A stretch of 64,000 nt of DNA, from the NCBI GenBank assembly GCA_002633005.1, contig NMRA01000355.1:394310-458309 (forward strand), in the 5' to 3' direction. This document shows, one piece after another, positions 20,471 through 64,000 of the stretch. Each line of letters starts with the position of its first letter. Position 1 is the first letter of the stretch. The position numbers and the translations under genes are program-made. The notes below the pieces were generated by a model. The model had not been told where the DNA came from, did not search any database, and saw only the letters and a list, made by a program, of their open reading frames with translations. Source of the stretch: Phoronis australis. Taxonomy: Eukaryota > Animalia > Phoronida.

Positions 20471-20536
20471 NTTTTTTGCGGCAGCCAAGGGGGGGGGGCG
20501 GGCCCAGTGGCCGCTCCCCCCTAAATCCGCCTATGA

Positions 20537-31621: not shown

Positions 31622-31860
31622 NNNNNNNNNNNNNNNNNNNNNNNNNNNNNNNNNNNNNNNNNNNNNNNNNNNNNNNNNNNNNNNNNNNNNNNNNNNNNNN
31701 NNNNNNNNNNNNNNNNNNNNNNNNNNNNNNNNNNNNNNNNNNNNNNNNNNNNNNNNNNNNNNNNNNNNNNNNNNNNNNNNNNNNNNNNNNNNNNNNNNNN
31801 NNNNNNNNNNNNNNNNNNNNNNNNNNNNNNNNNNNNNNNNNNNNNNNNNNNNNNNNNNNN
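31622..31860. other. Assembly gap (N run)
   Basis: Run of N; the paralogous interval in unit B (about 55828-57047) is ~1.2 kb, so the gap may be undersized. Confidence 0.99.
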
Positions 31861-33534
31861 CATTTTTTATTCGACTAGAAAGAAAGAATAAGGTGTTCAT
31901 GAGTTTTTGAGGTACACGCTATTAAAAAACAGATATTGCACGCTTTTGGATGTTACGCCAACAATAATATCCTGTTCCACAAGAAAATGTGGCCAGGAAT
32001 TTTTGTGTGTTACGGCGAGTGTTTTCACATGGACCAATTAAGGTGCCACCTTTTTATCCGTATGTCCTTCTTTTCAACTGCGTTGTCCCGCTTGTTAATT
32101 CTTGTATCTTGGCATCTATGCAACAGGTGTTCCAAATAGTATTGTCTCTTTCATATGAAAATATACCTTCCACAGTCCACTTTCTTTAGTAATGGAACAA
32201 TTGTAAAATGTGTTCCAATGTCTCTGGTTTACTGTATTACTATTACTATTACTATTGTTTATTCGATCAAGAAATGAGTCCATTTCTAAATGTCTTCGTA
32301 TAGTCCTAGTACACTGCAGCCAATGTAATCAGCTATTCACAGTACATTTCAAAGCTACGCAACTGATGTTTGCCCATATTTTCTGTTAGAATATGTTTAC
32401 TGCAAATTATACACATAAGTAGTTGGAATAATCACATTTTTTGTAAATTTTGTTGCATTCTGAATTTTTACTAAAGAACGTAATTGTATCAAACAGCTTT
32501 AAAGGTCCAATTAAAATATTAAGATGTATAACTTCGGATTAGTGCCTGATTAAATTCTTCACAGCAACTGTGGTAAATCCATATTCTAAAATTTTTATCT
32601 TTATCATTAAAATCCTTTTGAAACCTTGGTTTAATAAGTCATTTATAGAATGTCTGCTTCTGTGGTTCATTTCCGCTTTGTGTCATTGATATAACTTAAA
32701 TCGTTTGATTTTACAAGTTAATTAGTTAACTAAGTAATTAATTTTTTAATCAATATATTAGTACATGACGGACTTCATTATTACATTTATTGATATTTGC
32801 TTCTATTAAAACCAAACACTAGCAATCGCCTGCAGGCAATCATCCGTTTCACATTGTTTGAAATAGTCCAATAACATACGAATTTTTTTCGGAAGAAGTT
32901 TTCAATGGTAACAGTTCTAAAATTATTTCATTTCTGCTTAACATAAATTCAACCCCAAGCCCTATATTTTCTTGCAGCAAACAACAACGGATCAATCAAA
33001 CTCAAACAAGTCCCATGCATGCATCGCCTGTGATAAACGTTGTCATTCCATTCTTACAGTTTTGGTAATGACAAATATACTTCGTCATCGTGAAAAGTGT
33101 TAAAGAGTGGTTGTTAAAGCCATGTACCACGGTTTACAAAAATGCAATCATGCACTGTGATTTGACTGGAAAAGGAAATACACGGACGAGATTTCAAATT
33201 CATGTTTACAAATGTTGTCGATATCGCTTGAAATGTCTACAGACCCATCATTTGGATGATTACCATTCTTTGGAGGTGTTTGTTTAAGAACTAGCCAAAT
33301 TACGCAATCAACTTTACGTAAGTGGAAGGCGACCGTACAAATATAAAATGTGTGATTGTAATTTGAGTGTTACCTCGTGAAAGCCATTTGCTTACTCGTG
33401 CAGTGTGAAGTCTATTAAATCTAACATTGCTTTATTCTCCCTTTATTTTTAATTATGAGACCCCCCGATACACGTTAGAGATTCAAAGAAAGATACAAAA
33501 ACATTTTGAAATGAAATAACATTGAGAGATATTA

Positions 33535-40800: not shown

Positions 40801-43800
40801 CGTTTCGCGATGATAGCCAAAAATGAAATAGCAGTGTGAAAGTCACCCAAGCGAATCACAAGTTTCTTTTGAAAGATTGGGTTTTGCCACCTGATGCGTT
40901 GAGCTTTAGCATATATGGCCTGGTCAAACACTACAACAAGGCTATCAAGCTTCAGCTCGTCGGCTATAGCAACACTTCTCAATAGAATAGTATACACTGT
41001 AGACATATCAGTGGGATTAGCATCAATAACAGGCAAATAGCCAACTTTGGACACATCAGGTATGTCAACAGATTTAATTAGTCTGTTGAACCCAGTCCAG
41101 CCACCTACTACTTCAGGTTGCTTCGACAGGCAAAATGCAGTGTCTGTCAAATTCTGGTGTGCAGTCACTGATGGAATAAAGGTAAGTGCATCACTACGGG
41201 GAGGACCACCTTTTTCTCTCCTCGAGTAGTCTTCAATCATCTTTGGGGGAAGGTGGCAGGTTCTTTTCTTCGACTTCTTTACAAAAACTCCTTGTCTTTT
41301 GGATGGAGCTATTTCCTGGTGTTTCTGCTGTAGTTGTAAAATTATTCCGGTGGTATTATGGGTTGTGCCTGCACCACTCCGGGTTTCTTCTTGAAAATCG
41401 TTATTGTCCCAAACTAATGTGGTGTGTATACCATCTAAGAAACCATTTGGCACCATTGTATTTCTATGAAGCTGAGCCTCTGCTAAAGCAGTGTCAAACT
41501 GTAACACAGTCGAATGAGAAACGCAATGGCCCAGTCCATTTAGTCTACCAATGAGTGTAGAAGATCCAGTCAAATGTCAACCTGTCATACCTAAAGCTTA
41601 GTGTTTTGGCATCGGAGTGTGCCCCGCTGAAGCCACATACATTAGTACCCTGTCGACATCTTGCCTAGTGCTAACAAACCCGTCTCCCGTCACTAGAACC
41701 GATGACCCACGCAAGAAAATTGTACAAGTGCGAAGGAATGTATTCCTTGACCGAGTCAGACTGAAAGTCTTTGGCAGCGGGTGGCCTAACTGTAACACCT
41801 TCACAATCTTTTACATAATTTCTTAAAATAAGTGCAGATCTGTACAACTCACGCCGGATGTCTGGAGATGAGTCCACAACTTTGAGGTCGTGCACACTTT
41901 CATCACCACTGCTGCTACCCTCGGATTCATAATAATCGGCAAGTGAATCATTAAACGCTAGCACCAGTTCACTTTCATACCTCTTACAAGGTCGTACAAA
42001 CTGCAGCTGTGGGTACAGTTTCAACAGACTTTTTTTAAGATTTCCTGTCCAAATACTTCCACGCACGCCAGCTTTCTCAAGCATAACTTCAAATTCTCGC
42101 TTAAGTTTGGTAAGGCGGATGACTTCCCCATGTTTCAGAAGCTTCATTTCAATAAATTCCACACAAAACTGTTTGAAAACTTCACAGAAAAGTGGGTATT
42201 ATCCACTTGTTTGGTCTTTCACGATCTTTGTCAGGGGTCTCGTTAACTTTTTGTAGCAGGATCTATGATTTAGCTTCCAAAGCCACAAGGTCTTTATCTT
42301 TAAACTTAAAGTGCAGATTCATGTCCCCGGACTGCGCTGCTGCTTGTGATGCAAGTCCACCTGAAAGAACGTGAACTATTAACACTAATTTAACATTAAA
42401 AGTATTTGCATGCTCCTAACTATGTTAATGTATAGCAGGAACTTTACGACAATGCTATTTGAACATCGTCTACACTAATCGAAGTGCAGTTTTATTCGTT
42501 GACAACTTGTAGATGTGAAAACAAATAGGTGGCCTTTGCACTAATGACATACCTTGCGGCTCGCATAGCCTACATCATGCGTCACGATATTTACTGGACA
42601 CCGTTGAGTGATTTACAGTAGATCATTTTTGACACAAAACTCATTCTTAAAAATATTTTGCAATTTTCAGCGTAATTTGTATTCACATCATCCCGATATG
42701 TGGTGTTTTGATCTAAATTTACCAAGTAATCACAGAGATAAGGAATTAGAATGTAAGTTCTACTTAAATATTGTGTTGATATGCAAATGTTTCAGATGGG
42801 CTGACTAAGCCTTGATCAACCACCAGCCTAACATGTTTGCACACCGTCTGATCTGTCGCCTAAAAATGTTCATTTCAACAATTAAACTTTTCCAAAATGG
42901 GCACGAGTTTCCCAGATTAAAGAAGCGACCTTCATAATTAATTGCCAAATCCAGTTAGCATTTTGAACATGCAATGGTCAATACTTGTAATATAGGGAAA
43001 TCTAAAACACAAACCTGGTGATAATAGTGAACACACTAGGAGAACACAAAAATTAAACGTACTTCACAAAATTACATACTGTTATATACTCAAAGCTAGA
43101 AAGGTGTTCTTTCCTTCTCTTTCTAGAAATGCTGTCTACAACATATTTTTCTTGTTGACAAATAATACACTCAGGTGCCAGAATGTATGAACTTCTGGTG
43201 GTTGTTTTTTGTAGTTCCGATTTGGAAAGTCTCATGGATTTCCTTGGTTTTTCAGGGGTGACGTCTGTGACACTTATCTTCTTCATTTTTAGCACAACTG
43301 TTGGTTTCCGGAAACTTCGCTGTGCGTTTCTGTGCCTGTTCAATTTTTGTCCTGTCTGTTATCCTTCTATAGCAAGACATATGATATTTCAATGGAGTAA
43401 ATCCCCTGTTTTCTTGCATAAATTTCTGACACACTTCCTTTTCTTTGCAGTCTAAATTGGTCCATTGAGCTGCACATTCTTTGAACTTTCCCCAAGATGC
43501 TTTTGTAAACTTATTCAGCTTTTGATCTTCACAATTTATTGTCATTTCACAAACGTGAATAATACAGGCATCTCCCTCCATGGGAGCTGCCATATTGAAG
43601 TCATTCAACACAACAACACAATCTGGCTCTGTGATTGGTCAAATTGAACGAGAAGCTCTACCTGGTGGCAAAAATGTGTATAATATTTCTTGCAACAAAA
43701 ACGCCTTTTTTAAGAAAATGTGCAACTGTAGACGTGGGAACTTTTTGGAATTTGATTTATAGGTATATTATCTAGCCACGTAGAAAAAACCAGGTTGCCC

Positions 43801-45100: not shown

Positions 45101-48100
45101 AATAACAACATGGAAGAGCGCGGAAGAATCTGTAAGACATATCACTCAAATGTACACCATTTCCCGTCTGACCAGGTGTCGGCCAGTTGCCTTTGCAGAA
45201 TATTGCACACTAATCGCGTATCAAAAGAGAATTTCTTCAAAAAACTGTTTTCAGCTTCCAGGTCTGTAAAAAAGTGCGTTTTAATTCTGAAGACCAGTTT
45301 TTTATTGTTCCAACCTAGAATCCCAAAGAAAGAATCACCTTAGTAACTCTGGTATCGTCCCTAATCTTACCGATATACAACCAGCACTGACATCTACTAC
45401 TCGGGAAAAGTTTTGAATCAGGTTTTAGTTTGACCTCTCATATCGTGCGTATTGAGTGTGTTTAATAAAAACGACTTTATCAAATGCTTTGAAGAAATCG
45501 TGATGAGGATTTACTTATAAGTCTGGACACCACATTGCAGGTTTTTTGCAATGTCGTGGGTAAGATGTACCAATCGTGTTTCACAAGGACTATTAGACCT
45601 TAACCATATGTTGGTTGTTAACGATGATATGGTCCATGAGTTAGCTGACAAACGGTGTGAGGGAGATTGGTCAATAGTTGCCATCAGCAGTTATAATGTG
45701 CGGATTTGACTATGTGAGTATTGCCTAGGACGTCGAAACCAGATATAAATACAACCAATTTTGGTACGGAATATGCACATCCGTAAATATATCTACATTA
45801 ATCTTAAAAGGGTATGTGCTTAGTAAGCCAGCATAGTGTGTATTGTCTTGTTGATATGTTTTCAGAGTTACCTCACTTTATATTAATGAATTGATTTGCG
45901 CAAGCATTGTCCACTATTAGGAATCAACGACTTTTTAAAAACAAACCAGGGCGGTTTTCTCCTTCCTTGAAGCAAAACGCCCAACAATGTGAAGCATAGT
46001 TCCCAAGGACTGACGCTTTACCCAGCGGTCGCAGATTATTAACAAAAATGTTAAGTTTTTTCAATTTTCAATAGACGCATTGATATATACCCCCTGAAAC
46101 GATATAACAGGAAGGATCATGTGTACATGAGAGTAATTAGAAAATAGCGTAGCACCCCTAATTCGTTACAGCTATAGCTAGACGTAACTAAAAATTTCAC
46201 TGAGTCGCTCAGATTTTTGTTTCCTTTTGGAAAACAGAAAATATCAAGAACGTGACGCAAACAGCAGAGTTAGAATGAATGGTTCGTGCGTCAGAAGTAA
46301 GTAGTCTGATAACACTTTCATCAACCTATATAAGCTAAGAGGTCGATGTTTTTAATTCAATTTCTATCTTTGGCGCAGTTAATTTATGTATTCTTCAAGA
46401 AGACTCGTCGAAAATGTTATTACACCTTAGGAATTTCCGTTTGGAAGCGACTAAGATAGTTTGCAAAATTCCTAAAATCCTTTCGATTCAGATTAGATTG
46501 TGTTCAGATTAGATGTGGAGGTGCAAGTGGACTTGACTATAGTTCTTCGGGAACATTTTTCGCACTAAAACCTTTCGTCTCGACTCTTCAAACTAAAGCC
46601 CATACAGCGTCATCTTCGAATACCATTGTTTAGTTCATGTTTATGGCCTACTAGCAGGTGTGATAGCGTAACTTTTGAAAATTAAAGTACTTGTGAATTT
46701 ATTGGGTAGCTAACCCATGTGTGTTTTTGTGTTTGAGTGTGCGCGATAATTCTCCAAAATCCACTCGGGCTCTAGATAACGGGGGATAACGATTTCACCA
46801 TGTAATAATCTATATTTGTTAGGCTGTGAAAAATATTACGTTCAATTTCCATCTATGAAAACGACGTTCTTAATCCAGTAAAATTTATCTGTCACCTTCT
46901 CTCACTTGTCATCGATTTCCTGTTTAAACGGTGGTAACATGTCGTCGGGAATCTTTGACTTAGACATTATGTTTAGTAAATAGTGGTAACCTACTTTAGC
47001 AGACGAAATTTTCACGGTGGAAGTTTGGCATGATAAGATGTGTAGTAATCTAGCGTATTTGCTTAAAATTTATTTGATAGATGGACTTGATTTCTATGTT
47101 ATCGTTCAGTGTGTAATATAAATAGATCACTCCACTTTGGCGATATTTCTCCAATATTCACGAGGGCCCTATTTTACGAGAAATAACAACTTTGTCGTGT
47201 AATAATATTTATGCATTTTCGCACGGGACGTAATCCTCTATTCCTGTTCGTCTGAAAAGGAAAGACAGGGCGTTTCATGTGTTTTTGTGGCATCCGCAAT
47301 TTCCCCATTCGACTAAAAAAGCGTCGTCGGTCGCTTTTTGTGTGTTGCGGCGTTCATTTCACCTTTGGGTTTTGACATTTATGTAGACCCAGATGTCCCA
47401 CTTTTTATCCGGATGTTCCGATTTTTAATTAGTTATCCAGCTTTTAGATTCTCGAATATTGACAACTATTCAGCAGGTGTTCAAAGAACATTGTGTCTTT
47501 GTTAGGAATATTGTCCACTTTCTTTAGTAACATTACAATCGTAAAAATCTGTTCCAATGTTTTTCGTACACGGTAACACACACTGAATGTAACAGGATCA
47601 CGTGAGTTTCTTCTGAAATGCTATGTAAATTTGTACACTGCAACCAATGTGATGAGCTTTTCATAGTTCGTGTTAAAGCTACAAAATAAATATTTTCCCA
47701 TTTATATCTAATCTGCAAATTTTGATTGGTAGTTGGAATAATTTGTTCATCAAGGTTTCTGTAAATGTCACTGAGTCCAGGCTTTTTACTGGAAATGCAA
47801 TTATATCAAAAGACACCAAAATCCTATTAATATTTAAAGATGCATATTTTTTATGAATGCCCGCCTAAATTCTTCTCGGCAACTGTGAGACATCCATATT
47901 CTAAAATCTTTGCCTCGATAGGGTTGCAATGTTTTGAAACATTAAAACTGTTTCTCTTATAATTCAATTAGTCATTTATGTAACCACCCTTGTCCACTTT
48001 CTGTTTATTTTTATTACACCCGAAACTAATTGTCATCATACTTAATTAGTTGACATATTAAATGAGTAATGTGCTAATTATTACTTGAACGGTTTCCTTG

Positions 48101-48419
48101 TTGCACTCTTTTTTTGATTTTGGTAACACTCTTCGTTTTCAGAATTAAAAAAAATTAAACCTGTCAGATATCTAAAAAGATATTCAAACTTGATTAAAAA
48201 CACGACTGTACTTTTTGTTAGACGGCTTGATGTCCACGCGCTCATATTAACTGTAAAATTTCCGATTTTCCGACAAACAAGCTTTAGTATTTCAAATCAC
48301 CACTTTTATATCAAATACAACTAGACATAGCATCAGCAGTGGATCAAGTGTTAGATTTGCACATCAGCAAATAATATCTGATGGTACGTTAATTAGCTGA
48401 CTTCAAACTTACGGGCATT

Positions 48420-48830
48420 CATTGCTCGATACATATGCGCTCAAATTGGAGGTGTCATCAACAATTAGATCAAATTTACTCATACAAGTGTTTTTCCATG
48501 ATGACGTCAACATTGAACATGTTTGTCCGGCGAACTACTACTTTAACATTGTCTTCCAGACGCTTCGGGGCTTCATGGAGTTTTCGGGGGCACTCGATGT
48601 CAATGTTTTATTATGGTGCTTTCGCATCGCAGTAGGCCTTTACTGTTGGGACTAGCGTTAATACCGCTGATTCCAGGCGTTTAAAATTTCTGGACAAGTT
48701 TTCTAGCGTTTGCAGTAAGGGTCAAGTGTAGGTTTGGGCCAAGGCTGAGCAAGTAATTTTCGTCATCCGAAAGTTTGTGTGACGACGTGTTGACAAAAGG
48801 GGATATCGCCATGAAGAAGAGCAAATGGAG
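48420..48830 (-). mobile_element. Decayed Penelope-like fragment (unit B copy)
   Basis: Paralog of 26230-26660 with small deletions. Confidence 0.5.
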
Positions 48831-51800
48831 CAACCGTAGAAATAGTATGAAAAAATTGTCTCAAAAAATTTTCGGCCGATATGTTCTGATTCTGAATAGG
48901 AAATGCTAATGTCCTTTTTCTCGGTTTCACAATTAATTGCAATGTATCCTCTGCACCAATCGAATCACTTAACGAGGACGGTTTCTGACAGGAAGAATGT
49001 CTCCTCATAGATAAGCCAGTCGTAACCAAATCCCTTTAATATTTTTGTATTCTGTTGAATGTAGAGCTGTTGACCTTTGACCTCCTGAGGAGTTCTTCAT
49101 AATCAGACTAAAACCCTCCTTGCTCGTCAATGCAATTTAATCCTATTATAACAAGTACTAACAGTGTTTACTCATCCATGAGATGACATTTCACTCCCCA
49201 ACATCGCTTCAAAATTTGATATTTGAAATCCATAAGTTTCTGGTCATCAACCATCGAAACAGTTTGGCAGTATTTCGGTATCTCAAATGCGTTCAGTTAC
49301 AATAGATTTAATAGAAAAAGCAAAACTTTGTTCGCTTACAGGGTAACAGATAATTCGGCCTGAATGCTGTGTTATCACCATAATTTGTACTAACAAGATT
49401 TCTTATATAGTAGCTTAAAAAAAGCACCACTCACTCGATTTAGTAAAAATCAGAGACCAGAAACAACTATACTCGTTAGCCTAACAGCAAGAACACTTAA
49501 AAAATTCATAACACAACGTCATATTTATTTATGTGTGTACGTACGTATGAATGTATGTATAAGTAGAGTTTCAGAAACGGTTTTGGCTCCAAATCGGACC
49601 TTTGTTTTTTCTAACAGGAACTGGAACTGTCGGGCGTATGCAGTGAAAGTTAAATTTCCTTCCTCCACTGTAACCACTAACCACTAACTTGGAGGCAACA
49701 CACGTTTAACCAATTGTATCATTTTCTCCTTGAAATCCAGAACGATTGGACATGTTCATGGCATTCTGCTTTCACTGCACTAAAACTCAGAGCGAAGATT
49801 CGTCTCAGCTGTCTCCAAAGCGAAATGTTGCACGTTATTGTCAAACGTACATGGTTTGAAACTACTGATATATAATCTTTGTGCATTGGAAATATAGATC
49901 ACATGCCGCATTGCTGTCATCTTTAGTTTGTTGATATGTCGTTCAAGCTGACTCTGCAATAGGCAAATTGACATCTGTTGGGCAATTATTGATTCAAAGA
50001 ATGTTAACTTGTTGAAAAAATGCAGATTTATCTGATATTGTCCACATTTGAAAGCTTACGAAGCCTTTCTTTGCTTGAGTTTTGTAAAGGGACGAGTTGA
50101 CGCATACCTAATATTTACTTTAGTGCGATATTAGTTCTAGCTAACTGAGAAATTAGCCAATGAGTGAGTGGGCTTGAGGTTGGTTTTCTTTGTTCGATTA
50201 AGACGTACATGTATTATGATTACATAGAACGAGAGATGCGATTGAGACCATTGCTAAGATACCAGTGCCTATCAACATAGTTACGGGATAGCCTAAGTAC
50301 TTCAATTTATTCTAAAACAAGGAAAACGCGCCAAAAACGATGCAAAAGCTATATTATACAATATTAAGTAATTTGCATGATAACTTTTTAACCAATGAGC
50401 ATGCTTGAGACGAACAAAAATGGCACTTTTTTCTCATTACATTGCAAATCATGATGCTTCAAACCTTTCTTTCCCTTGTTTACATGGTTTTGGGCAGGTT
50501 TCCAACAAATACGAAACAATGGCTGAATGACGTGGGCGGACGCTTTCTTTTGTTTGTGGGCACAGGTCTCAAACTGAGTCGTGCAAAAGACCAGAACCAG
50601 TTTTTCTTTTAGTGAGCTCGTGATTATAGTTCGTACTTACCGACATCACAACTTGGAGTTTTGTTCATGTTACTCGTGTGGCCATGATGTAACTTAGCAA
50701 CTCTTAGTGTCAAAAATGCAAAGCAAGGGAAAGTTCACAGGAGTAAACAAATGCTTGATCCATTTTTCGTGGGCAGCGTGCCAAATTCACTCTGGTAATC
50801 CGGCACTTCAAAACTAAGCAATTGTTGGAGGGTCGGTTTTCTACTTATGACACGATGTCTCGAAACTGTGGTGAAACTCTGAAATTTTGGGCACCGATAC
50901 TCAGGCAGAAATTGAATTTTCTTCATTCTTAATGTTGGGACATGGGCGATTTTGTCTTTCAACTTATTTCTCTGATTTTGAACACATTTTGTATCAACAT
51001 AGTCTGAAAATAGGCTTGGCAGTTAATGGGGTCGCTAAAAATATCTGCCGGCGGACGCTGCGTTTCCATAGCTTGTAACATCTAGCTGAAAGATGGTTTG
51101 TTTACTGGCAAAAGTATATCGAAATGAATTTTGAATGTTAAGGGATTGCTGGTGAATATTGGAAATGTCTACCCTAATTTGTCTAAAATCTTTGTCCCAG
51201 TTTTTTTCAAAATGGACCTTAGTGAAGTTTGTGCAAAATAAGTTTCAGTGGCACAATCTGGTGTACGTTCCATCGAAGTGGGATATTCTAGATGCCACTT
51301 TGTCAGTTCTGTGTACTCTCGCTTGCACAATTGTTCCTTCACATGCACAAGAGTGGGGTCACCTGCACATGGGTTATATTGCCTGCACATGTGTTGTCTC
51401 GCAGCACGAAGAGTTAAGTCGGAGATGTCTTGCAAAAAGTGTTGATTTGGCAAACTGTCGTAGTAGCAGACATTTTACAAAGCAATCATCGGATGTTCAG
51501 TTCACAATCTTGAAACTGAAAATGGCAGGAGAAATGGTGTTCCGGAAATGAAGCAATTTGTAATAAATCTGAGCACGAGACAGAAGCTGAATTTCATGTT
51601 TCGTTGTCCAGTCCTGGCAAGTTTAAGAACTACGTTTATATCACGTTGCGACGTTAGAAACAACGATCTCAGGTCTCTGTTTAAACTCGTTGACAGTCAC
51701 CAATAAAAAGGCATTTCAAAGTACATACAAATGGCAATGGTCATCAGAAGAAAAAATTCGAGCTTTTAAACGCTGTACGTGTGTATCAAAGTTAGCTTAT

Positions 51801-52593
51801 ATTAGTTACAGGCAACTGTGACCGGTGGCTTCTTATACTCAATTAAGTTAAAACACCTGTTACGTCCCTGTAAGCCAAAGTCAGTTATATGTTCAGAATG
51901 ATTCATTGATGGAATTCTCAGTTGGATGTCCAGTGTCAGACTACCTTTAGATACAGGACAAGCACCAGGACACTTTACATACTAATTTGCTTAACAAAAA
52001 TGACACTCCCAAGAGCTCTGAACAAGTCAGTACATTCATAGGCAGATTTAGGGGTGGTGCGCAAGCAAAATGAAAGAGCAACAGCGCGAAGCGTGAGCAA
52101 ATATCTTTGAGCCCAGAAACTAGGACTGGTATAGGGGAGGGTGGACTCAGATCCCAGATTATGTCGGGGCGGAAACGTGCTCCCGTTTTTTTTTTAGTCC
52201 ACTATAGATTTTGTGAACGGAAGATTCATCCACGGCCCCCGCAATTTTGGGGCCGCCTGTATGTACAATCGCCCGATTTCCCCGAGGCAACATGTTGCCT
52301 TCCCCCCCATATGGTATCCTAGATCCGCTACTGACAGTACCATGTAATTCATAAAGTTTAAAAATGACAGTCACAATAGTAACACAATAATAATCACAAC
52401 ACAGCGTAACTGATTAAACAAGAAGCACATGATACTTTGGCAATGAATTGCTTTTCCTCAATTCCGGACCTGACTCTGTAGTGCTTAGGATGACTTTACA
52501 TGGGGGTCACATCACAGTCATATTGTCAGGCAATAAAATTCTCTGCAAGTCATGGACAGCTGAGAACCCACTAACCCATTCGCCTGTTTCCAG

Positions 52594-52737
52594 AGCTCAT
52601 TCCCACAAGCTGCTTTAGTATGGAGTGCGCCCCAAGCGAGCTGTGTTGCCGTAATGGAAAGACACTTGACGACAACAGTTCTGCGACACCTCAGGCTAGT
52701 GTGCTTGGATCAACATGTGATGAAAACGTTGAAAAAG
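52594..52737 (+). other. Candidate upstream coding exon, unit B (MECAPSELCCRNGKTLDDNSS...NVEK)
   Basis: Acceptor cctgtttccag at 52593; ATG at 52620; 39 codons plus 1 nt; strong donor AAG/GTAATT at 52737/52738. Confidence 0.45.
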
Positions 52738-53994
52738 GTAATTAAAACGGGAGAGAAATAACTGAGTTCAGTGTCACTCTGAATACAGCTTACTTTGGTA
52801 ATATAGTTACTTAACCAAACAAGTTAAAATTCTAAGCATGGAATTAGAATTCTCGCGGGGACCCATAGATTTTAGGGTTAGAGGTAGCGACCCCGTTGAG
52901 CTTTCATAGGACTAGTCGCGAGAATGTGAATTTCCAGTCGTCCACGCGACTGAATTTTGATCGATCGAGTTTAGTTGTCAAATTTTATTGCTTACGAAAA
53001 ATTGCTTGTGGATTTATTTGCGTTGCTAAGTGTGTGTGTGTGGGTGGGTGGGTGGGTTTTGGGTGGGCGCGCGCGCGTATATGTACATGTATGCATGTGC
53101 ATATTATTGCTGTTTCGTATTGTTTCTGTAAAAATTCATTTGTGCAATGTTTACCTGATGCCCGGTTGCATGAAATAGTCCCAATTTAGGGACTCAACAA
53201 AGATCCCTAAATCTACTGTGTATTTTTGAACTTGTGGAAACAGCGATTGCCCTTTCTTGTATTGTTTTAGTTTCATTATTAAGTTATATTTTCACTTTGA
53301 TACCAATCGAAAGTCAACTCTACGTGAAATTGTCAATGTAATCGGAAATAATTAGGGATCTTTTCATGCAACACCCCAGTTTAAGGACTAAGTCCGTATC
53401 TATTTTCAATGAAATCTGGGTTCAGTTTTTATTCATATTATTAGAGAAAGTCTTTAAACAAAGAGAAGAGGGGATCTTAGTAAAGATCAAGTGTTCCAAT
53501 GGCGATCTACGTTTTCAGTAAGGGGGGTTTAGGATTCCCGCAAAGGTCGAATCCGAGGCGCGTGGCGCCGAGCGGGAGGAGGTTGGAATGGGGGGCTCCT
53601 CCCTACCGTGTTAGACAATTTTTTGTTTTTGTTGCCAAATGGTGAAATTTCCATGCATCCTGGTAACTTTCTGGCACTTAACATGTCTCTGGAGTTTTTC
53701 TTAAGATAATTTAAAACCCTTCTCGATTTCGTCACATGAACTTGGGTCATAAGTTTCGTGAAACCATATTGAGTTTTGATCGATCGAGTTTAGTTGTCAA
53801 ATCGAGCCTAATTTTATTGCTTCCGAAAAATTGCTTGTGGATTTCTTTGCGTTGCTAAGTGTGTGTGTGGGTGTGTGGGTGTGTGCGTATATGTACATCT
53901 ATGCATGTGCATATTATTACTGTTTCAGTTTTTATTCATATTATTAGAGAAAGTCTTTAAACAAAGAGAGGCTCTCACTAAAGATGAAGTCTTC

Positions 53995-56700
53995 CAGTGG
54001 CGGATCTACGTTTTCAGTAAGGGGGGTTTAGGATTCCCGCAAAGGTCGAATCCGAGGCGCGTGGTGCCGAGCGGGGCGAGGTCGGGAGGGGGGTCCCCGG
54101 CCCCCCCTACCGTGTTAGACAATTTTTGTTTTTCTTGCCAAATAGTGAAATTTCCATGCATCCTGGTAAGTTTCTGGCACTTAACATGTCTCTTAAGATA
54201 ATTTAAAACCCTTCTCAATTTCTTCACATGAACTTGGGTCATAAGTTTCGTGAAACCATATTTGTGTACATCTGGGTATGAGTCACGCCACCAGCAAAAA
54301 TTGTTGTTGGAACATTTGCTTACACACACCTTTTTTACCATACGAAAAGTCGTATACGAAAATGTGGGGCGTGTATACAGGGGTTTAGACAACTACCAAA
54401 TATTCAAGAGCATAAGGAGCACCGACGGGGCATAAAAAACTTGAATATCAAATGATCGCACAACAGCAGCCTCAAGTTGTTTAAGAACGAAGACCTGTAC
54501 TGTTAGTCCGGAAATAAACATGTGTTCTGTCTCGTTACGAGAAAAACTGGCGAACGATGGTGCTCTCAGCTCATAGTCTATTATTAAAAGCGACAGTAAA
54601 CAATTATGTATCACTTTATTAAGATGAATCACGTTGACAACAATTGAAAAACGTCAAATGTATCATAAAACGAACCATCTGAAAACAGTTTCACGAAACC
54701 AAAACATTCTGTACACCGTGGTGAAAAGATTTACAGGACCAGTTCGCAGAGGGACCAGGTGTACACTGAGAGTACACAAAAAGGCTGACCTGGTACGTCA
54801 CGAGACCAAAAGTACACCTGTGATTATTATCCCTATAAAAATAGTCGATCCGTCGCGCGACCAAACAGTACTGGCTGAGATAAATAGTTTTTCAAAGCAC
54901 AAGTTGGTAAAAAACATCACAAGACTAGTTCGCCGAGGGACCAGAAGTACACTGAAACTCAATATCTACACAAATCAAGCTGGCCTGGTCCGTCGCGAGA
55001 CCTTAAGTGTTCCCTGCAAAAATTTTGAATTGAAAACTTCTATCTAAACACTTTTTAATCCCCAGTTGTTGCTCATTCATGTATTTTACAGATCTGGTGG
55101 TCAATTGCTGCGAGATGTTGTCTAGGAAAGGTTTTCGCACGGTTCTGTAGTACTCACTGGAAGAAACAAATATTAAGTACAGATTTAACTGCTCATTACG
55201 TGAAATAGATTTTGGACATGAAGAAGATAGAGCCAAGTGGAAATACAAACCAGAATCAGTTTATGTGCGCTCGTAGACCCTCGGCTGTACTGGGAAAATT
55301 TAGCATGACCACAAATAATTTCTATTTCGTTTTATTGTACACACAAGCATAAAAAACCGACATTATATACGAACTGTAGAATTATAATTTATTACCTGGG
55401 TGTTTCTCCAGGAACGTTAGTCCTATCCTCCTGTTGTCTAGACTGCCGAGGAATCTGTATATCGGATCCAATGGTTTGCTCGTCTTAGAATCATTCTACC
55501 CAGATATCTTCGATGTTTGTTACCAACGCTTGCACTTCGTCAACTGCTGTGTCAATGAGCTTGTAAGCCTCTACAACGTTAGCATCTCGTTTCGCAGATC
55601 AGTTGGCACTAAGCCTCCTGAGGTTACCAAGTCCATTCAAAAGACTTACATGCGCAACTAAATTTGATCCGTTCACCATGGACTACTTCAAAACTTGACG
55701 ATGTATCCCAGGACCTATTTCCATCTCTTGCAATTTTCGAAATAAACGCCCCAATGTCTGAACGTTTGAAACCCGAAGTATTAACATCAAATAAATGCCA
55801 ATGGGCATGGGCGTTCCATCGGGGGGGCGGGCTTTCTGCGGAAATTCCCAGTATAGAAGACGGCATTGGTGCTTATTGCAGGTAGAAAAACGGTAGGTGG
55901 TGAGGTCGGAACTAGGGCTTCTCAGGAGGCCTACTGAACATCGCACGAGTCTCGCAAGACTTTGTTGTGAAAGTACAGCCTCCCCGCAACTTCTGATAAT
56001 GTACACTGTTCGCGAATGCGGTCACTTTGTCAATGTGAGGGCCCCCTTGGTCATTCCTTGTGTAGGCATAACTTGTTATTAGTTTGCACCTTCAAACGGA
56101 CTCGCTACCAGACCACGGTGCCCGCCACAATAGCAATTCTTCGGAAAACGAGTTTTTTTTCAAAAATATTACATGTACATGTACACTGTATGATATTGCG
56201 CAAGACAATTTTACTATACACCAGTCAAATTCGAGTTGCAAACGTTTGGAGTGTAATAGCATGACACGACATGACAGATGAGATAAAAACGTTGCACGTC
56301 AATTTGCCTGAATACCAGGGTTGTGGCACCACAGTATTTTCCCTAATCAAACCAAAACATATCTTAGAGTAAAGAAGCTAGTTACCTAAAGAAATCAGCT
56401 ATAGAGCTGCTCTTTCAGCGGTGGATCCATCTAAACTGTTTGACTACTTTAGAAGTGTCGACGGAAGCGCGCGCACAATTGATCTCCGCGTGTTTTGCCG
56501 ATGAGCCACGAAGACTCGAAATGCGTTGATTTTCATAACAGCAATTCACAATGCAAAAAATTTTCAGAGTGAACCCCCTTCAATTTTTTCCAAGTTGGTT
56601 TTCTTATGCTTTACACACGCTGGCGGTGCCGTTCATTTTTGCGTCCTGGCCCAAGGGGGGGTTAAACCCCATGAATCCCCCACCCGTAGACCCGCCACTG
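53995..56700 (-). mobile_element. Decayed hAT transposon with both TIRs (unit B copy)
   Basis: TIRs CAGTGGCGGATCTACG and CGTAGACCCGCCACTG (15/16 match). Minus-strand remnants NVVEAYKLIDTAVDEVQALVTNIEDIW, IQIPRQSRQQEDRTNVPGETP, EYYRTVRKPFLDNISQQLTTRS and AVVRSF..LLNIW resemble ZMYM1/PRKRIR-like hAT transposases. No clean 8-bp TSD seen. Confidence 0.75.
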
Positions 56701-58716
56701 GAAGTGATAGAAAAGTATTGCATCTGTGAGTCCATAAAGACACAAATACGCCAAAAGACATTGGGACCTTAGTTGAGTCCCTATTTGGGACTGTTTCATG
56801 CAACCAGCCACCGATGCCCACGGACTCAATTTAAGTGATAAGCGGCATTGTTACCTATGACATTTACCTGTGCTCGTGAAATAAAATTAATCAATTTAAA
56901 GTTTTCCTTGTAAAAGAATGTAATATTTTGTGTAACCGAGAAAGTTCTTGTTTTTGGCGGAATGTCGCCTTTCCGTTAACCACTTTTGCCACTCATGAAA
57001 TTGACATACCCTCATATACCATTGTGATTTCCTTCGCGACATTCCTACATTTTTTATTCGACTAGAAAGAAAGAATAAGGTGTTCGTGAGTTTTTGAGGT
57101 ACACGATATTAAAAAACAGATATTGCACGCTTTTGGATGTTACGCCAACAGTAATATCCTGTTCCACAAGAAAACGTGGCCAGGAATTTTTGTGTGTCAC
57201 GGCAAGTGTTTTCACATGGACCAATTAAGGTGCCACCTTTTTATCCGTATGTCCTTCTTTTCAACTGCGTTGTCCCGCTTGTTAATTCTTGTATCTTGGC
57301 ATCTATGCAACAGGTGTTCCAAATAGTATTGTCTCTTTCATATGAAAATATACCTTCCACAGTCCACTTTCTTTAGTAACGGAACAATCGTAAAATGTGT
57401 TCCAATGTCTCTGGTTTACTGTATTACTATTACTATTACTATTGTTTACTCGATCAAGAAATGAGTTAATTTCTAAATGTCTTCGTATAGTCCTAGTACA
57501 TTGCAGCCAATGTAATCAGCTATTCACAGTACATTTCAGAGCTACGCAACTGGTGTTTGCCCTTTTTTATCTGTCAGAATATGTTTACTGCAAATTATAC
57601 GCATAAGTAGTTGGAATAATCACATTTTTTGTAAATTTTGTTGCAATCTGAATTTTTACTAAAGAACGTAATTGTATCAAACAGCATCAAAGGTCCAATT
57701 AAAATATTGAGATGTATAACTTCGGATTAGTGTCTGATTAAATTCTCCACAGCAACTGTGGTAAATCCATATTCTAAAATTTTTATCTTTATCATTAAAA
57801 TCCTTTTGAAACCTTGGTTTAATAAGTCATTTATAGAATGTCTACTTCTGTGGTTCATTTCCGCTTTGTGTCATTGATATAACTTAAATCGTTTGATTTT
57901 ACAAGTTAATTAGTTAACTAAGTAATTAATTAATCAATATATTAGTACATGAAGGACTTCATTATTACATTTATTGATATTTGCTTCTATTAAAACCAAA
58001 CACTAGCAATCACCTGCAGGCAATCTTCCGTTTCACATTGTTTGAAATAGTCCAATAACATACGAATTTTTTTCGGAAGAAGTTTTCAATGGTAACAGTT
58101 CTTAATTTATTTCATTTCTGCGTAACATAAATTCAACCCCAAGCCTTATATTTTCTTGCAGCAAACAACAACGGATCAATCAAACTCAAACAAGTCCCAT
58201 GCATGCATCGCCTGTGATAAACGTTGTCATTCCATTCTTACAGTTTTGGTAATGACAAATATACTTCGTCATCGTGAAAAGTGTTGAAGAGTGGTTGTTA
58301 AAGCCATGTACCACGGTTTACAAAAATGCAATCATGCACTGTGATTTGACTGGAAAAGGAAATACACGGACGAGATTTCAAATTCATGTTTACAAATGTT
58401 GTTGATATCGCTTGAAATGTCTACAGACCCATCATTTGGATGATTACCATTCTTTGGAGGTGTTTGTTTTAGAACTAGCCAAATTATGCAATCAACTTAA
58501 CGTAAGTGGAAGGTGACCGTACAAATATAAAATGTATGATTATAATTTGAGTGTTACCTCGTGAAAGCCATTTGCTTACTCGTGCTGTGTGAAGTCTTTT
58601 AAATCTAACATTGCCTTATTCTCCCGTGATTTTTAATTATGGGACCCCCAATTCACATTGGAGATTCAAAGAAGATACAAAAACATTTTGAAATGAAAGA
58701 ACTTTGAGAGATATTA

Positions 58717-59551
58717 ATGCTGGCCCAACTCTTTTCAGCTCAACTTGACGATGAGGAACAACGGTTGGCGTCAGAACTACGGAAACTTTCTGAAGAAGAT
58801 AGGGGTTCAGTGTTAGGTGGTAAGATACTTCAAAAAATGGGTGATGTTTACATGAAGCGAGGCTTATTGCAGGAATGTGCACAGCATTTTGTTACGACCT
58901 CAGCGTTATACAATGCTGCGTTAATGCGATATAATGAGTCTGGGATGAAACATCAAGTTGAAGCGTCAATGGAACAAAATGAACGAGCATTCTACAATAT
59001 GATTTCAATATCAAATCATAAAATTCCAATGGAGTTTAGGTGTGAAATCAAAGAAGAATTGGACAGCATCAGGAAAAATATTACTCCGACAGCAAATCAG
59101 GTACTAGACAACTTTGCTAAAAACTTAAACTTGGAAGCCGGAAATGAAGAAAGAGTGATGGTGGAAAGGGGATTTGTTAAGGAAACGAGGAATGCTTTTG
59201 AAGGTTTGTGTACCAATTTGAAAGGATTTCACAACAGTCTTCTATCAAAATGTCAAAGTATATTGGGCCCACCCCCCCAGGAATACTCTGCCATAGCCAT
59301 GGGATCATTAGCAAGGGGAGATGCTACACCTTATTCAGACTTGGAGTGGGCCATTTTGGTAAAAGATGATACCCAAGATCTCGAGTACTTCAGAAACATG
59401 GTTCGACTTATGCACATATTCGTTTTAAACATTGGAGAAACAAATCTGAGGACCATGAATATTAAATCACTCAATGATTATTTCACACCTGGTGGGAACT
59501 GGTTCAGTGACACTGTTGTAGTTAGGGGTGTGGAGTTCGACAGTGCTGCGC
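58717..59551 (+). CDS. N-terminal part of NTase-TPR protein (helical/TPR-like start plus Pol-beta-type NTase motif), cut at a contig join
   Basis: ORF MLAQLFSAQL...YSAIAMGSLARGDATPYSDLEWAILV...GVEFDSAA; ends at N 59552, after which 58825-59551 is repeated. Confidence 0.8.
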
Positions 59552-59564
59552 NATACTTCAAAAA

Positions 59565-62162
59565 ATGGGTGATGTTTACATGAAGCGAGGCTTATTGCAG
59601 GAATGTGCACAGCATTTTGTTACGACCTCGGCGTTATACAATGCTGCGTTAATGCGATATAATGAGTCTGGGATGAAACATCCAGTTGAAGCGTCAATGA
59701 AACAAAATGAACGAGCATTCTACAATATGATTTCAATATCAAATCATAAAATTCCAATGGAGTTTAGGTGTGAAATCAAGGAAGAATTGGACCGCATCAG
59801 GAAAGATATCACTCCGACAGCAAATCAGGTACTAGACAATTTTGCTAAAAACCTAAACTTGGAAGCCGGAAATGAAGAAAGAGTGATGGTGGAAAGGGGA
59901 TTTGTTAAGGAAACGAGGAATGCTTTTGGAGGTTTGTGTACCAATTTGAAAGGATTTCACAACAGTCTTCTATCAAAATGTGAAAGTATATTGGGCCCAC
60001 CCCCCCAGGAATACTCTGCCATAGCCATGGGATCATTAGCAAGGGGAGATGCTACACCTTATTCAGACTTGGAGTGGGCCATTTTGGTACAAGATGACTC
60101 CCAAGATCTCGAGTACTTCAGAAACATGGTTCGACTTATGCACATATTCGTTTTAAACATTGGAGAAACAAATCTGAAGACAATGAATATTAAGTCACTC
60201 AATGATTATTTCACACCTGGTGGGAACTGGTTCAGTGACACCGTTGTAGCTAGGGGAGTTGAATTTGATAGTGCTGCGCCTTTTGCTTGCAAAACGCCAC
60301 TTGGAAGGCCTGACAGACTTGAAAGACCAGGCATAGAATTGATAAAAACGCCCAAACACATGGCTGCAATATGCGAATGTGAAACCGCCGTTAAGGAGGG
60401 TTATAACTTCGATCGCGTATTGACTGTTACAACCAAACTCCGTGGGGATGATCAGCTTTTTGAAAAGTTCAGACAGCTCAGAGCATATAATCAGGCTAAG
60501 AAAGACTCGCGCAGGAAGTACATTCAGGATATCCGTAATGTAGTGGATGAGTTCTTACCACAACTGAGTTTTCACAGGGATGACGCAGCAACTCATGACA
60601 TTAAAAAAGAGATGTTGCGGTTGCTGACTTTGGTTGTCGTTTTACTGAAACCGTTATTCAGTTTGAATAATGATTTTATTTGGGACACTATAGATGAGAT
60701 GATATCTGAATCCATATTGACATCCGATGGAGGGCATAATTTGCTTGTGGTCATTTCCATCGTGGCCCTTTTCAGACTCGTAATGTACTGTAGTAAAGAA
60801 AGACAGCACGAAGTGTTCGTTTTATTTGGAAACTCAAACTCATCTGAGCTGGGGAAATCTACCGTACCAGGATATAACAGATACAAGCATTTGTTTATTC
60901 GATGTTATTATTCGATGTTACCATTAGCTAATTTTGTAAGAAGTAAACAGTTAGTAGAGGCACGTACCAAGCGACAAATAGATGACATGTTTTATGAAAG
61001 AAATCATTTAACAGAAGGTTTAATTGAATTATTCAGCCTCTCCAACGAACGTGCCCGAGAACAATTTTTTGCTCACATTGAATCAGTTTCTGCAAATCCA
61101 CACAAAAGAGAAAGGGAGGACGTAGTAGTTCAGCAAAAAGGAAAGGATATTTTCTGTGACCACACAAACAGTACAGTATGGCTGTGCCTCTTCAATATCG
61201 GTAAAACCTACGAGGCAGAACAAAAGTTCAAAGAAGTTTTGAAATATAACTTGCATGCTTTCAGTCTTATCTCGCGGAAACACGTCACAAAAAGCAGACT
61301 CCCAGCTCATAACTATGGTGAGCAGGAGATTCCGGATATTTTGAAGACGATTAAAAGCATGCACGAAACGAACAAACGCGAGTTGAAGTATAGGGAATAT
61401 GATGATGATGAATTTGTGCGCATCACACATATTCTTGGAGCTACGGGGAATGTGTGTTCAAGTATGGATATGAACAACTGGGCCTTGCAATATCATCAAG
61501 ACTCACTGAATATGATGAAGAGAATACACGGTGATGGTGATCATCCCAACATTGCCACAAGTTTGCATAATATTGGGGATGTATATAACAACATGTGTAA
61601 GTACGACCTGGCGTTGCAGTACTATCAAGACTCACTGAGTATGAAAAGGAGGATACACGGTGATGGTGATCATCCCAGCATTGCCACAAGTTTGCATAAT
61701 ATTGGGGATGTATATAAGGACATGTGTAAGTACGACCTGGCGTTACAGTACTATCAAGACTCAGTGAGAATGAAGAGGGGGATACACAGTGATGGTTATC
61801 ATCCCCGTATTGCCTCAAGTTTGCATAATGTTGGGGATGTATATAACAACCTGTGTAAGTACGACCTGGCGTTACAGTACTATCAAGACTCACTGAGTAT
61901 GGAGAGGAGGATACACGGTGATGGTGATCATCCCAGCATTGCCACAAGTTTGCATAATATTGGGGATGTATATAAGGACATGTGTAAGTACGACCTGGCG
62001 TTACAGTACTATCAAGACTCACTGAGTATGGAGAGGAGGATACACGGTGATGGTGATCATCCCAGCATTGCCACAAGTTTGCATAATATTGGGGATGTAT
62101 ATAAGAACATGTGTAAGTACGACCTGGCGTTACAGTACTATCAAGACTCACTGAGTATGTAG
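59565..62162 (+). CDS. DUF294/GlnD-GlnE-like nucleotidyltransferase plus helical domain plus TPR array, copy B (~905 aa with the 40 N-terminal residues from 58717; frame continues past TAG 62160 and TGA 63051 to 63137)
   Basis: Intronless ORF with signature hGS-x10-DhEh (MGSLARGDATPYSDLEW), downstream GVEFD...CKTPLGR, a DUF294_C-like helical segment (HDIKKEMLR...IWDTIDEM...LLVVISIVALFRL), then 43-aa TPRs. Confidence 0.85.
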   Translation: MGDVYMKRGLLQECAQHFVTTSALYNAALMRYNESGMKHPVEASMKQNERAFYNMISISNHKIPMEFRCEIKEELDRIRKDITPTANQVLDNFAKNLNLEAGNEERVMVERGFVKETRNAFGGLCTNLKGFHNSLLSKCESILGPPPQEYSAIAMGSLARGDATPYSDLEWAILVQDDSQDLEYFRNMVRLMHIFVLNIGETNLKTMNIKSLNDYFTPGGNWFSDTVVARGVEFDSAAPFACKTPLGRPDRLERPGIELIKTPKHMAAICECETAVKEGYNFDRVLTVTTKLRGDDQLFEKFRQLRAYNQAKKDSRRKYIQDIRNVVDEFLPQLSFHRDDAATHDIKKEMLRLLTLVVVLLKPLFSLNNDFIWDTIDEMISESILTSDGGHNLLVVISIVALFRLVMYCSKERQHEVFVLFGNSNSSELGKSTVPGYNRYKHLFIRCYYSMLPLANFVRSKQLVEARTKRQIDDMFYERNHLTEGLIELFSLSNERAREQFFAHIESVSANPHKREREDVVVQQKGKDIFCDHTNSTVWLCLFNIGKTYEAEQKFKEVLKYNLHAFSLISRKHVTKSRLPAHNYGEQEIPDILKTIKSMHETNKRELKYREYDDDEFVRITHILGATGNVCSSMDMNNWALQYHQDSLNMMKRIHGDGDHPNIATSLHNIGDVYNNMCKYDLALQYYQDSLSMKRRIHGDGDHPSIATSLHNIGDVYKDMCKYDLALQYYQDSVRMKRGIHSDGYHPRIASSLHNVGDVYNNLCKYDLALQYYQDSLSMERRIHGDGDHPSIATSLHNIGDVYKDMCKYDLALQYYQDSLSMERRIHGDGDHPSIATSLHNIGDVYKNMCKYDLALQYYQDSLSM

Positions 62163-63120
62163 AGGAGGATACACGGTGATGGTGATCATCCCAGTATTGC
62201 CCCAAGTTTGCATAATATTGGGGATGTATATAACAACATGTGTAAGTACGACCTGGCGTTACAGTACTATCAAGACTCACTGAGTATGGAGAGGAGGATA
62301 CACGGTGATGGTGATCATCCCAGTATTGCCACAAGTTTGCATAATATTGGGGATGTATATAAGAACATGTGTAAGTACGACCTGGCGTTACAGTACTATC
62401 AAGACTCACTGAGTATGGAGAGGAGGATACACGGTGATGGTGATCATCCCAGTATTGCCACAAGTTTGCATAATATTGGGGATGTATATAACAACATGTG
62501 TAAGTACGACCTGGCGTTACAGTACTATCAAGACTCACAGAGTATGGAGAAGAGAATACACGGTGATTTTGATCATCCCAGTATTGCAATTAGTTTGCAT
62601 AATTTTGGGGATGTATATAAGAACATGTGTAAGTACGACCTGGCGTTACAGTACCATCAAGACTCACTGAGTATGAAAAGGAGGATACACGGTGATGGTG
62701 ATCATTCCCGTATTGCCTCATGTTTGCATAATATTGGGGATGTATATGAGGACATGTGTAAGTACGACCTGGCGTTACAGTACTATCAAGACTCAGTGAG
62801 CATGAAGAGGACGATACACGGTGATGGTGATCATCCAAGTATTGCCACAATTTTGCTTAATTTTGGGGATGTATATAAGAACATGTGTAAGTACGACCTA
62901 GCGTTACAGTACTATCAAGACTCAGTGAGCATGAAGAGGAGGATACACGGTGTTGGTGATCATCCCAGTATTGCCACAAGTTTGCATAATATTGGGGATG
63001 TATATAAGAAGATGTGTAAGTACGACCTGGCGCTACAGTACTATCAAGACTGAGAGAGTATTGAGAGGAGGATACACGGTGATGGTGATCATCCCAGTAT
63101 TGCAATTAGTTTGCGTAATG
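61473..63120 (+). repeat. Coding tandem array of ~12.8 x 129-bp (43-aa) TPR units, copy B
   Basis: Same consensus as array A; TAG in unit 6 and TGA in unit 13. Confidence 0.95.
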
Positions 63121-64000
63121 TTGCAGAACGGTACTGACCTGCTTAGTTACTGCGTAAAATTACGAGCTGCCAAGTGTTTTGTTTAAAATTTGCTTTTAAT
63201 TGTTTTGTGGTAAATTGTAAAGAAATTGATAGATGGACTCCGAGAAGGTGCATTTCACAGTTGGGGTGACAGAGTATCTTTTTATAGCGAAGAACACTTT
63301 GGTTACGAGAAATGTGTCTACTTAAATGAGTTATGATGACGACCTCAGAATATATGAGAGCGCCGACCATGAGCCCGCATGGCATTCTCTTATTTTCACA
63401 ACACTCTTGCAAGAGGTTTAGGAAATGCAGCAGTTGCAAAAAGAATTGGCTTTGGAGGCCCCACTACACTTGTTGGACCAATTTGACAATGAATATCAAA
63501 TGTCCCCAGCGGGAAGACATCTGTCATTTTCTGTAATGAACAGATCGGTTTGGCTAACAGAGAGGCGGACGCCAAACTAAAACTGACTAGTAAATAATGA
63601 ATATGGCTACTAGGTGGCAAAGATTACCTAAAAAGTCTCCGAAAATGGGAAGACGCCGTCGTCTCCGTAAAAGAAATGAATTGCCAAAGTTCAGGAAAGT
63701 ATGTCTAGTAACTTCAAATATATTAAGCCATACGCACAAAAATCTAAGTTGTCTCTCAGGAACGCCACATTAGTTGGACACTTGCCAAAGTTAGCGCCAG
63801 TCTAGCTCTTCTCAAGAGGAACGTACAAACCAATTTCCACATTGATCTCTCAAGGAAATCAGATGGCACGGACAAAAATTAACACTGACAAGGGCGCTCC
63901 ACATCTTGCTAAGCCGTCGGAAAATCAGCGTCAGCTCTCCTATCTCCAATACGAATAATCTACAACTGCCAAAAACAAACTCGAAATTAATAGCAACTGC

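Follow-up and report, generated by a model that had tools for sequence, protein, structure and literature searches.

The 64,000-nucleotide stretch of Phoronis australis DNA analysed here (contig NMRA01000355.1, hereafter the window) carries near its end, at positions 58717 to 63137, sequence of a gene predicted to encode a Pol-beta-type nucleotidyltransferase of the DrrA/GlnE branch, followed by an array of near-identical tetratricopeptide repeats (TPRs). The gene belongs to a large family, and in our best explanation, to which we give about an even chance, intact members of this family are protein AMPylases or other NMPylases (transferring AMP or another nucleoside monophosphate, NMP) that use a variable TPR groove to pick their target in conflicts between hosts and microbes. 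In its favour are the fold match, the conserved metal-binding residues, purifying selection on the enzyme part, repeat homogenisation, groove-enriched variation, the precedent of FICD (PMC8065156; papers given by PMC number are cited from parts of their text), immune-domain fusions in some relatives and the presence of members in endosymbionts. Such an enzyme would transfer, in a Mg-dependent reaction, AMP or another NMP from the nucleoside triphosphate to a Tyr, Ser or Thr hydroxyl of an acceptor protein held by the TPR superhelix. Shuffling of repeats would alter the targets, the role would be an immune or anti-symbiont one, gene copies would turn over by birth and death, and the sharing with endosymbionts would have come about by horizontal transfer.

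Predicted enzyme fold, catalytic residues and selection

The original prediction placed in this gene a Pol-beta-superfamily motif, MGSLARGDATPYSDLEWAILV, with a candidate third acid in GVEFD, followed by a DUF294-like helical C-terminal region, and all of these are present: motif and third acid lie where they were placed, and a Pfam scan matched DUF294 above its cut-off of 21 bits (28.4 and 30.4 bits), with weak matches to SidM_N, NTP_transf_2 and Polbeta. Searches of PDB sequences were weak with the single protein (best E 0.04) and swamped by TPRs with the family alignment. An AlphaFold2 model of residues 1-470 of copy R, one of three gene copies in the window, built from an 88-sequence alignment, reached a predicted local distance difference test (pLDDT) score of 90.2 and a predicted template modelling (pTM) score of 0.92; the whole 869-residue frame of this copy gave 83 and 0.78. 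With the 1-470 model, Foldseek returned four chains at E<=0.001, every one DrrA or GlnE (6yx5 at 1.7e-9), and VIA-align against 48,161 representative chains ranked DrrA/SidM at Z 27.5 (root-mean-square deviation, rmsd, 3.9; 324 aligned residues), the N-terminal domain of GlnE at Z 24.8 (3.3, 318) and its C-terminal domain at Z 23.6 (3.3, 304), with the best chain that is neither DrrA nor GlnE at Z 9.1. A further VIA-align run had these three matches at its head as well. The model thus agrees with the proposed Pol-beta-type nucleotidyltransferase and predicts that it belongs to the DrrA/GlnE branch. The N-terminal bundle (residues 1-69), whose arrangement is a commonly found one, scored Z 7-9 against TPR and MIT domains.

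Conservation within the family points the same way. In 87 aligned relatives, chosen by similarity to the query, G160, S161, D172 and D239 are kept in all 87 and E174 in 86, a pattern fitting, on the evidence of the alignment, the DrrA active centre of G98-S99...D110-x-D112 plus D150 (PMC7815794), with D239 taken as the D150 counterpart from conservation and not from residue-level superposition. Both halves of DrrA are covered by the alignment to the family profile, the C-terminal helical half included, where 84-86 of the 87 relatives retain K351, R356 and R408. Between the copies in the window, the ratio of non-synonymous to synonymous substitution rates (dN/dS) is 0.17 over the N-terminal half and core (copy L vs copy R, p 4e-5) and 0.22 over residues 203-470 (copy R vs copy 1, p 2e-5); the enzyme part was therefore constrained while the copies diverged. 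Over the linker (residues 471-640, copy R vs copy 1) dN/dS is 0.97.

The original prediction had offered either protein nucleotidylation or synthesis of a nucleotide signal. An enzyme making a cGAS-, OAS- or CD-NTase-like second messenger on ligand binding would carry the same superfamily motif and could use a receptor-like repeat array, and a potential adenylyl cyclase is found among enzymes related to GlnD/E (PMC3710099). However, the whole 470-residue model, with its HEPN-like half, superposes on the protein-modifying DrrA and GlnE at Z 24-28, far above the next chain, and no cGAS, OAS or CD-NTase entry is among the Foldseek and VIA-align matches listed. Protein-modifying enzymes being the top matches by a wide margin, the nucleotidylation half of the claim is the more likely and the second-messenger half, less supported, is very improbable. 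Lower in the same ranking, Kanamycin/AadA nucleotidyltransferases (Z 7-8, rmsd ~6) and HEPN toxins (Z 8-9) bring up nucleotidylation of small molecules or RNA ends, in the manner of aminoglycoside nucleotidyltransferases, or a helical half acting as a HEPN RNase. These scores are one third of DrrA's, and small substrates need no long protein-binding array; the R-x4-6-H motif of HEPN RNases follows R408 in only 9 of the 87 relatives and is thus not conserved, and the sole such motif of copy R (at R342) is altered in copy 1. We rejected the HEPN RNase on the lack of motif conservation, and hold this whole group of activities to be very improbable. The reading as a protein AMPylase or NMPylase is the one carried forward below.

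The locus and its three gene copies

The span from 58717 to 63137 had been read as one intact ORF, without introns, with about 13 near-identical 43-residue TPRs and with tandem paralogs. It is not one intact open reading frame: the frame is broken at a single N at 59552, which splits two contigs overlapping by 727 nucleotides (58825-59551 vs 59553-60279; 24 mismatches, 96.7% identity), and further on there are stops in repeats 5 and 12. The catalytic motif (from 59302 and again from 60030) and the N-terminal half occur twice, and the frame is broken, because two overlapping contigs were joined at this N. We therefore rejected the single intact frame, the first reading having missed that the locus is split and truncated. 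Within 59553-63137 the lack of introns was borne out, no interruption of intron size being present. The features of the locus are as follows.

58717-59551, + strand: copy L, 5' part of the gene, with a probable ATG at 58717 and N-terminal helices, ending at the N
Copy L catalytic residues, + strand: G-S at 59302-59307, D at 59338, E at 59344, third D at 59539
59552-59552, no strand: single-N scaffold joint between two contigs with a 727-nucleotide overlap
59553-62162, + strand: copy R, open frame of 869 amino acids, 5' end lost at the joint, residue 1 at 59553, TAG in repeat 5
59553-59760, + strand: N-terminal three-helix TPR/MIT-like bundle, residues 1-69, from the model
59874-60497, + strand: predicted Pol-beta-type nucleotidyltransferase core, with G160 S161 (60030-60035), D172 (60066), E174 (60072) and D239 (60267)
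60498-60962, + strand: HEPN-like helical domain as in DrrA/GlnE, with conserved K351, R356 and R408
60963-61460, + strand: fast-evolving helical linker or degenerate TPRs, dN/dS 0.97 vs copy 1
61461-62162, + strand: translated part of the 43-residue kinesin-light-chain-type TPR array, HPxIA units from 61542
62163-63137, + strand: array units downstream of the first stop, with another stop at 63051-63053, terminal stop at 63135-63137
33535-36418, + strand: copy 1, pseudogene-like duplicate, deletion at 33598/33599, stop at 36218-36220, array cut at 36418
24299-36418, + strand: first unit of the ~12-kb duplication, partner at 46808-62978

The three copies have 121 nucleotides in common, in which 3 sites distinguish copy L from copy 1, 10 distinguish it from copy R, and 11 separate copy R from copy 1. 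Copy L being nearer to copy 1 than to copy R, the span therefore fuses two different copies, which are either alleles or tandem paralogs. They differ at 14 of 606 sites upstream vs 10 of 121 in the shared stretch (p 0.003), a mosaic divergence suggestive of exchange among the copies. Near 58739, in copy L, lies a possible splice acceptor, so that a further exon may be present upstream of it. The frame of copy R stays open for 869 codons, to a TAG at 62160-62162 in repeat 5, and meets a second stop at 63051-63053 in repeat 12, so that of the repeats counted earlier, found here as 12 full and one partial, only four full near-identical ones and most of a fifth lie in the open frame. Judging from its model, copy R could yield a short-array enzyme, provided that it is transcribed and that its 5' end is present. 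As for tandem paralogs, a related copy does lie at 33.5-36.4 kb, but it has no catalytic motif: in copy 1 a frameshifting deletion of 650 nucleotides takes out the G-S...D-x-E motif, a stop follows at 36218-36220, and the array of 11 repeats breaks off abruptly at 36418, where we looked for the terminal inverted repeat of an insertion and found none. The unit of ~12 kb around it (24299-36418) pairs with 46808-62978 in matching blocks of 90-96% identity, either as a duplication or as a second haplotype.

Non-coding DNA upstream of the two gene regions (31861-33530 vs 57048-58712) diverges by 3.1%, against a synonymous divergence of 10-11% in the gene, so that the coding copies look older than their flanks; gene conversion or a third lineage may be offered as explanations. 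Single-N joints at 673, 4026 and 59552 are flanked by near-identical overlaps (97%, 90% and 97%), and the single N at 20471 has no flanking overlap. The overlap-flanked Ns look like the assembler's joining of unmerged near-identical sequence, which suggests unmerged haplotypes of a polymorphic genome and calls for caution with duplications in this assembly.

The state of these copies bears on whether any of them still works. Across both arrays there are three nonsense codons in 23 repeats, to which are added the frameshifting deletion and the interrupted array; repeat variants are overall near neutral (ratio 0.69 and 1.11), and there are 18 departures from the family consensus. All three copies may accordingly be non-functional relics of family turnover, a real possibility though the lesser one in our estimate, and one compatible with the best explanation for intact members. 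Against it, the enzyme part evolved under purifying selection between the copies, copies L and R keep every catalytic residue, copy R has its stops only in the distal array, with a remaining frame of 869 residues that models well, and fungal TPR arrays vary from 2 to more than 16 repeats across strains (PMC4986451).

An intronless gene whose architecture is close to that of Neochlamydia proteins might also have come from an endosymbiont contaminating the animal assembly. This is already largely refuted and has next to no chance of being right: two separate exons matching mitochondrial CLPX, at 3003-3230 and 7377-7712 on the - strand (E 6e-17 and 6e-9), identify the window by sequence as animal nuclear DNA, the flanks of the gene are long non-coding duplicated DNA of similar GC, and the protein falls among animal rows in trees, with weak support. 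We rejected contamination on the CLPX exons and the duplicated flanks. Between the two duplicated units, at 37831-43638 on the - strand, lie broken-up long ORFs that had no Pfam or PDB sequence match among those scanned, and in which we see a likeness to an Academ-type DNA transposase carrying an XPG-like motif; a search for a terminal inverted repeat found none.

The TPR array and its variable groove

The array of copy R (61542-63137) comprises 12 full and one partial repeats of 43 residues with a mean identity of 85% in amino acids and 93% in nucleotides; the repeats of copy 1 are 80% identical in amino acids, internal identity here being our own measure and not that of T-REKS. For 22 of the 23 repeats the nearest neighbour lies within the same array (the remaining one is a tie), and each array has its own synonymous markers, which therefore indicates concerted evolution, that is, homogenisation within each array. 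Groove positions 2, 5, 6, 9, 12 and 13 were fixed before testing, and PMC1261162 agrees on them. These six columns hold 15 distinct variants and the remaining 37 columns 40 (permutation p 0.005, arrays pooled), the enrichment also being found against non-core columns (p 0.009) and in copy 1 on its own (p 0.02). Arrays of four or more repeats, by a strict pattern, were found in 55 of 233 relatives, and the most variable columns include positions 2, 9, 12 and 13 in the 24 of these arrays that have at least 50% but under 80% internal identity (3 from named animals, 5 bacterial and 16 without an organism name). The site-variable array that had been proposed is thus supported by groove-enriched variants and concerted evolution. 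Judged from sequence, groove variation indicates a variable binding surface, and not by itself an immune role.

Such an array could alternatively be a pattern receptor, with a foreign ligand freeing the enzyme to NMPylate a fixed host target and so trigger defence or cell death, as in an NLR without an NTPase switch. Near-identical, groove-variable and concertedly evolving repeats are found in fungal NLRs (PMC4986451), DrrA is switched on allosterically by a bound protein, so that the fold can be gated (PMC7815794), relatives carry CARD, Death and IRF fusions, and the gene itself lacks a switch of this kind: a Pfam scan and motif search found no P-loop or Walker A, NB-ARC or NACHT in it, as the original prediction had it. 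We nevertheless consider this gated sensor unlikely. The layout and the variable positions recur in endosymbiont members that have F-box or OTU partners, which fits substrate recruitment (PMC4209131), two relatives do carry a Roc GTPase, and high internal repeat identity is a minority trait in the family. We prefer a groove that would select the protein to be modified.

Relatives in animals and endosymbionts

Searching 1.84 billion representatives with the pre-TPR region gave 1561 clusters at E<=0.001 and 252 at 1e-30; among 30 representatives looked up were 11 from Branchiostoma, 4 from Owenia and 1 from Saccoglossus, and the tunicate Clavelina accounted for 2 of 4 matches in a separate search. 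A pattern-limited scan of GTDB found 42 loci, none naming a free-living model species: 22 are titled Rickettsiaceae, Holosporaceae, Parachlamydiaceae, Amoebophilaceae or Midichloriaceae and 20 at higher rank only, and 8 of 9 higher-rank bacterial rows in the tree group with the intracellular families. All eight GTDB ORFs scanned have TPRs. By sequence matches, then, the family spans lancelets, an annelid, a hemichordate, a tunicate and endosymbiotic bacteria. Five of 22 long relatives scanned carry Death+Roc, Roc-COR+GT4, IRF, CARD or OTU domains and one an IF5A-like match, so that a multi-copy family with immune-type fusions in some relatives is indeed found. Some animal members bear the automatic UniRef name 'Protein-PII uridylyltransferase N-terminal domain-containing', after GlnD. 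None of 41 pattern matches on viral contigs was confirmed as a relative, phage records held no relatives, none of 70 metagenome contigs carried one (close relatives only being searched for), and Rfam gave no match.

Trees were built from 176 domains with FastTree and from 71 rows by a quick method, the latter reduced to 48 rows by dropping 23 without an organism name; 24 of the 42 GTDB loci entered them. One branch of the 48-row tree, with support 46/85 (44% of bootstrap trees), parts 21 animal from 27 bacterial rows, the tree having no outgroup and being unrooted as to the direction and number of transfers. The window protein falls among the animal rows, and its grouping with Owenia P0068 carries a long-branch warning. 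Horizontal transfer between animals and endosymbionts is likely from the patchy distribution, on this unrooted tree. Side observations on relatives include three enzyme domains per predicted protein in P0008, P0009 and P0010 (P0008 and P0010 from Branchiostoma), in whose clade many relatives have Q-A-T in place of the L-A-R of the motif; an OTU domain with two enzyme domains in P0077, which groups with Owenia members and echoes the OTU-bearing NEX2 proteins of Neochlamydia; at least eight family members on a Cytophagales chromosome of 1.06 Mb (OY970075.1), a considerable expansion given its reduced genome; and the core genes infB, nusA, rpsA and accBC around the TPR gene on NZ_AP017978.1, titled a Neochlamydia S13 plasmid, which may be a chromosomal piece.

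Several observations weigh against our preferred explanation. All three gene copies in the window are damaged or incomplete. The structural identity of the model to DrrA is 13%, and of the two GlnE domains the N-terminal one, which removes AMP, reaches a score close to that of the adenylylating domain. DrrA D249, a metal ligand according to one review (PMC8097203), corresponds to T359, with DrrA numbering deduced from the printed alignment, and this position is acidic in only 5 of 87 relatives. Of 86 well-conserved positions, 18 deviate from the family consensus in the copy R protein, whose branch in the trees is long (1.3-1.5). Groove enrichment has p 0.06 in copy R alone and 0.26 in its five translated units, non-synonymous change in the groove runs at roughly double the synonymous rate without reaching significance (p 0.14), only 4 of the 55 multi-repeat relatives reach 80% internal identity, and groove variability is generic to TPRs, being found in bacterial members also. 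TPR and DUF294 matches are all that 16 of the 22 long relatives show, and the domain fusions of others may be gene-model artefacts.

Since the assembly splits the window locus, which is also truncated, it would make a poor clone to start from, and an intact lancelet, tunicate or annelid member is better suited. Through the family, Death, CARD, IRF and Roc-COR domains of invertebrate innate immunity are linked with a group of endosymbiont effectors.

Comparison with known systems

The fold and the bacterial architecture are already known, and the animal family appears undescribed. Full-text literature searches, with most subscription papers outside their reach, found no paper on animal members; the supplements of PMC8195603 except file 13 have no match to DUF294, GlnD or three accessions in the parts available, and the accessible text on a 'TPRP-like' amphioxus gene acquired by horizontal transfer (PMC13350694) has no match to 'nucleotidyl' or 'DUF294' and gives no link to the family. 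The architecture had been called uncharacterised in animals, which agrees with these searches, but the layout is not specific to animals, having been described as NEX2 in Neochlamydia: F-box-(OTU)-DUF294-TPR, with F-box in most members and OTU in some (PMC4209131). The window gene has the DUF294-type domain followed by a C-terminal TPR array in the same way, and NEX2 is colinear with copy R through the TPRs (23% identity over 916 columns, E 3e-47) and occurs at 11 places on one record, a lineage-specific expansion as in the animal family. NEX2 proteins differ in that they carry F-box or OTU domains and are putative effectors secreted by a symbiont of amoebae, and they are themselves uncharacterised in the text available (PMC4209131); copy L, which has about 36 residues before its helical bundle, has no Pfam match to F-box or OTU.

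The N-terminal adenylyltransferase domain of DrrA/SidM from Legionella (PDB 6yx5) is like the window protein in its whole two-lobed fold, in G-S-x10-D-x-[DE] and a third Asp, and in the conserved Lys and Arg of the helical half. It differs in being joined to guanine nucleotide exchange factor and P4M domains, in contrast to the TPR array in an animal nuclear gene here, and the window protein, at the low identity given above, lacks an acid at the D249 position. GlnE is alike in fold and DUF294 (PF03445) is matched above cut-off, whereas a Pfam scan found no second transferase/removase, HD, ACT or CBS domain in the window protein; GlnE and GlnD are housekeeping enzymes, and the family of the window gene is multi-copy and fast-evolving. 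Fungal NLRs with highly internally conserved TPRs share kinesin-light-chain-type repeats of about 85% internal identity over 100 or more residues, concave-face variation and concerted evolution (PMC4986451). They differ in carrying NB-ARC or NACHT, of which the window gene has neither. Positive selection and allelic length polymorphism are further traits of the fungal arrays (PMC4986451); here the groove excess of non-synonymous change stands at p 0.14.

A 2021 review puts the number of metazoan AMPylase classes at two, Fic and SelO, and expects more (PMC8097203), and a 2025 review has the same pair (PMC12409994). With its DrrA/GlnE fold and intact metal ligands, the present large animal family offers a candidate third class that can be tested directly, and if the activity holds true animals would have in it a third kind of enzyme that AMPylates proteins. 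More tentatively, and with some doubt on our part, its members may be invertebrate immune AMPylases derived from, or shared with, a DrrA-like effector of intracellular bacteria, which would form this third class besides FICD and SelO and would use shuffled TPR arrays to modify fast-changing symbiont or pathogen proteins without an NTPase switch. FICD, also called HYPE, is the only animal AMPylase known to bear TPRs, which select its substrate (PMC8065156), and it resembles the window gene in setting a TPR module beside an AMP-transferase, the latter only predicted in the window gene. FICD differs in its unrelated catalytic fold and in being a single conserved gene of the endoplasmic reticulum with a short TPR module (PMC8065156), whereas the window gene belongs to a multi-copy family with long variable arrays.

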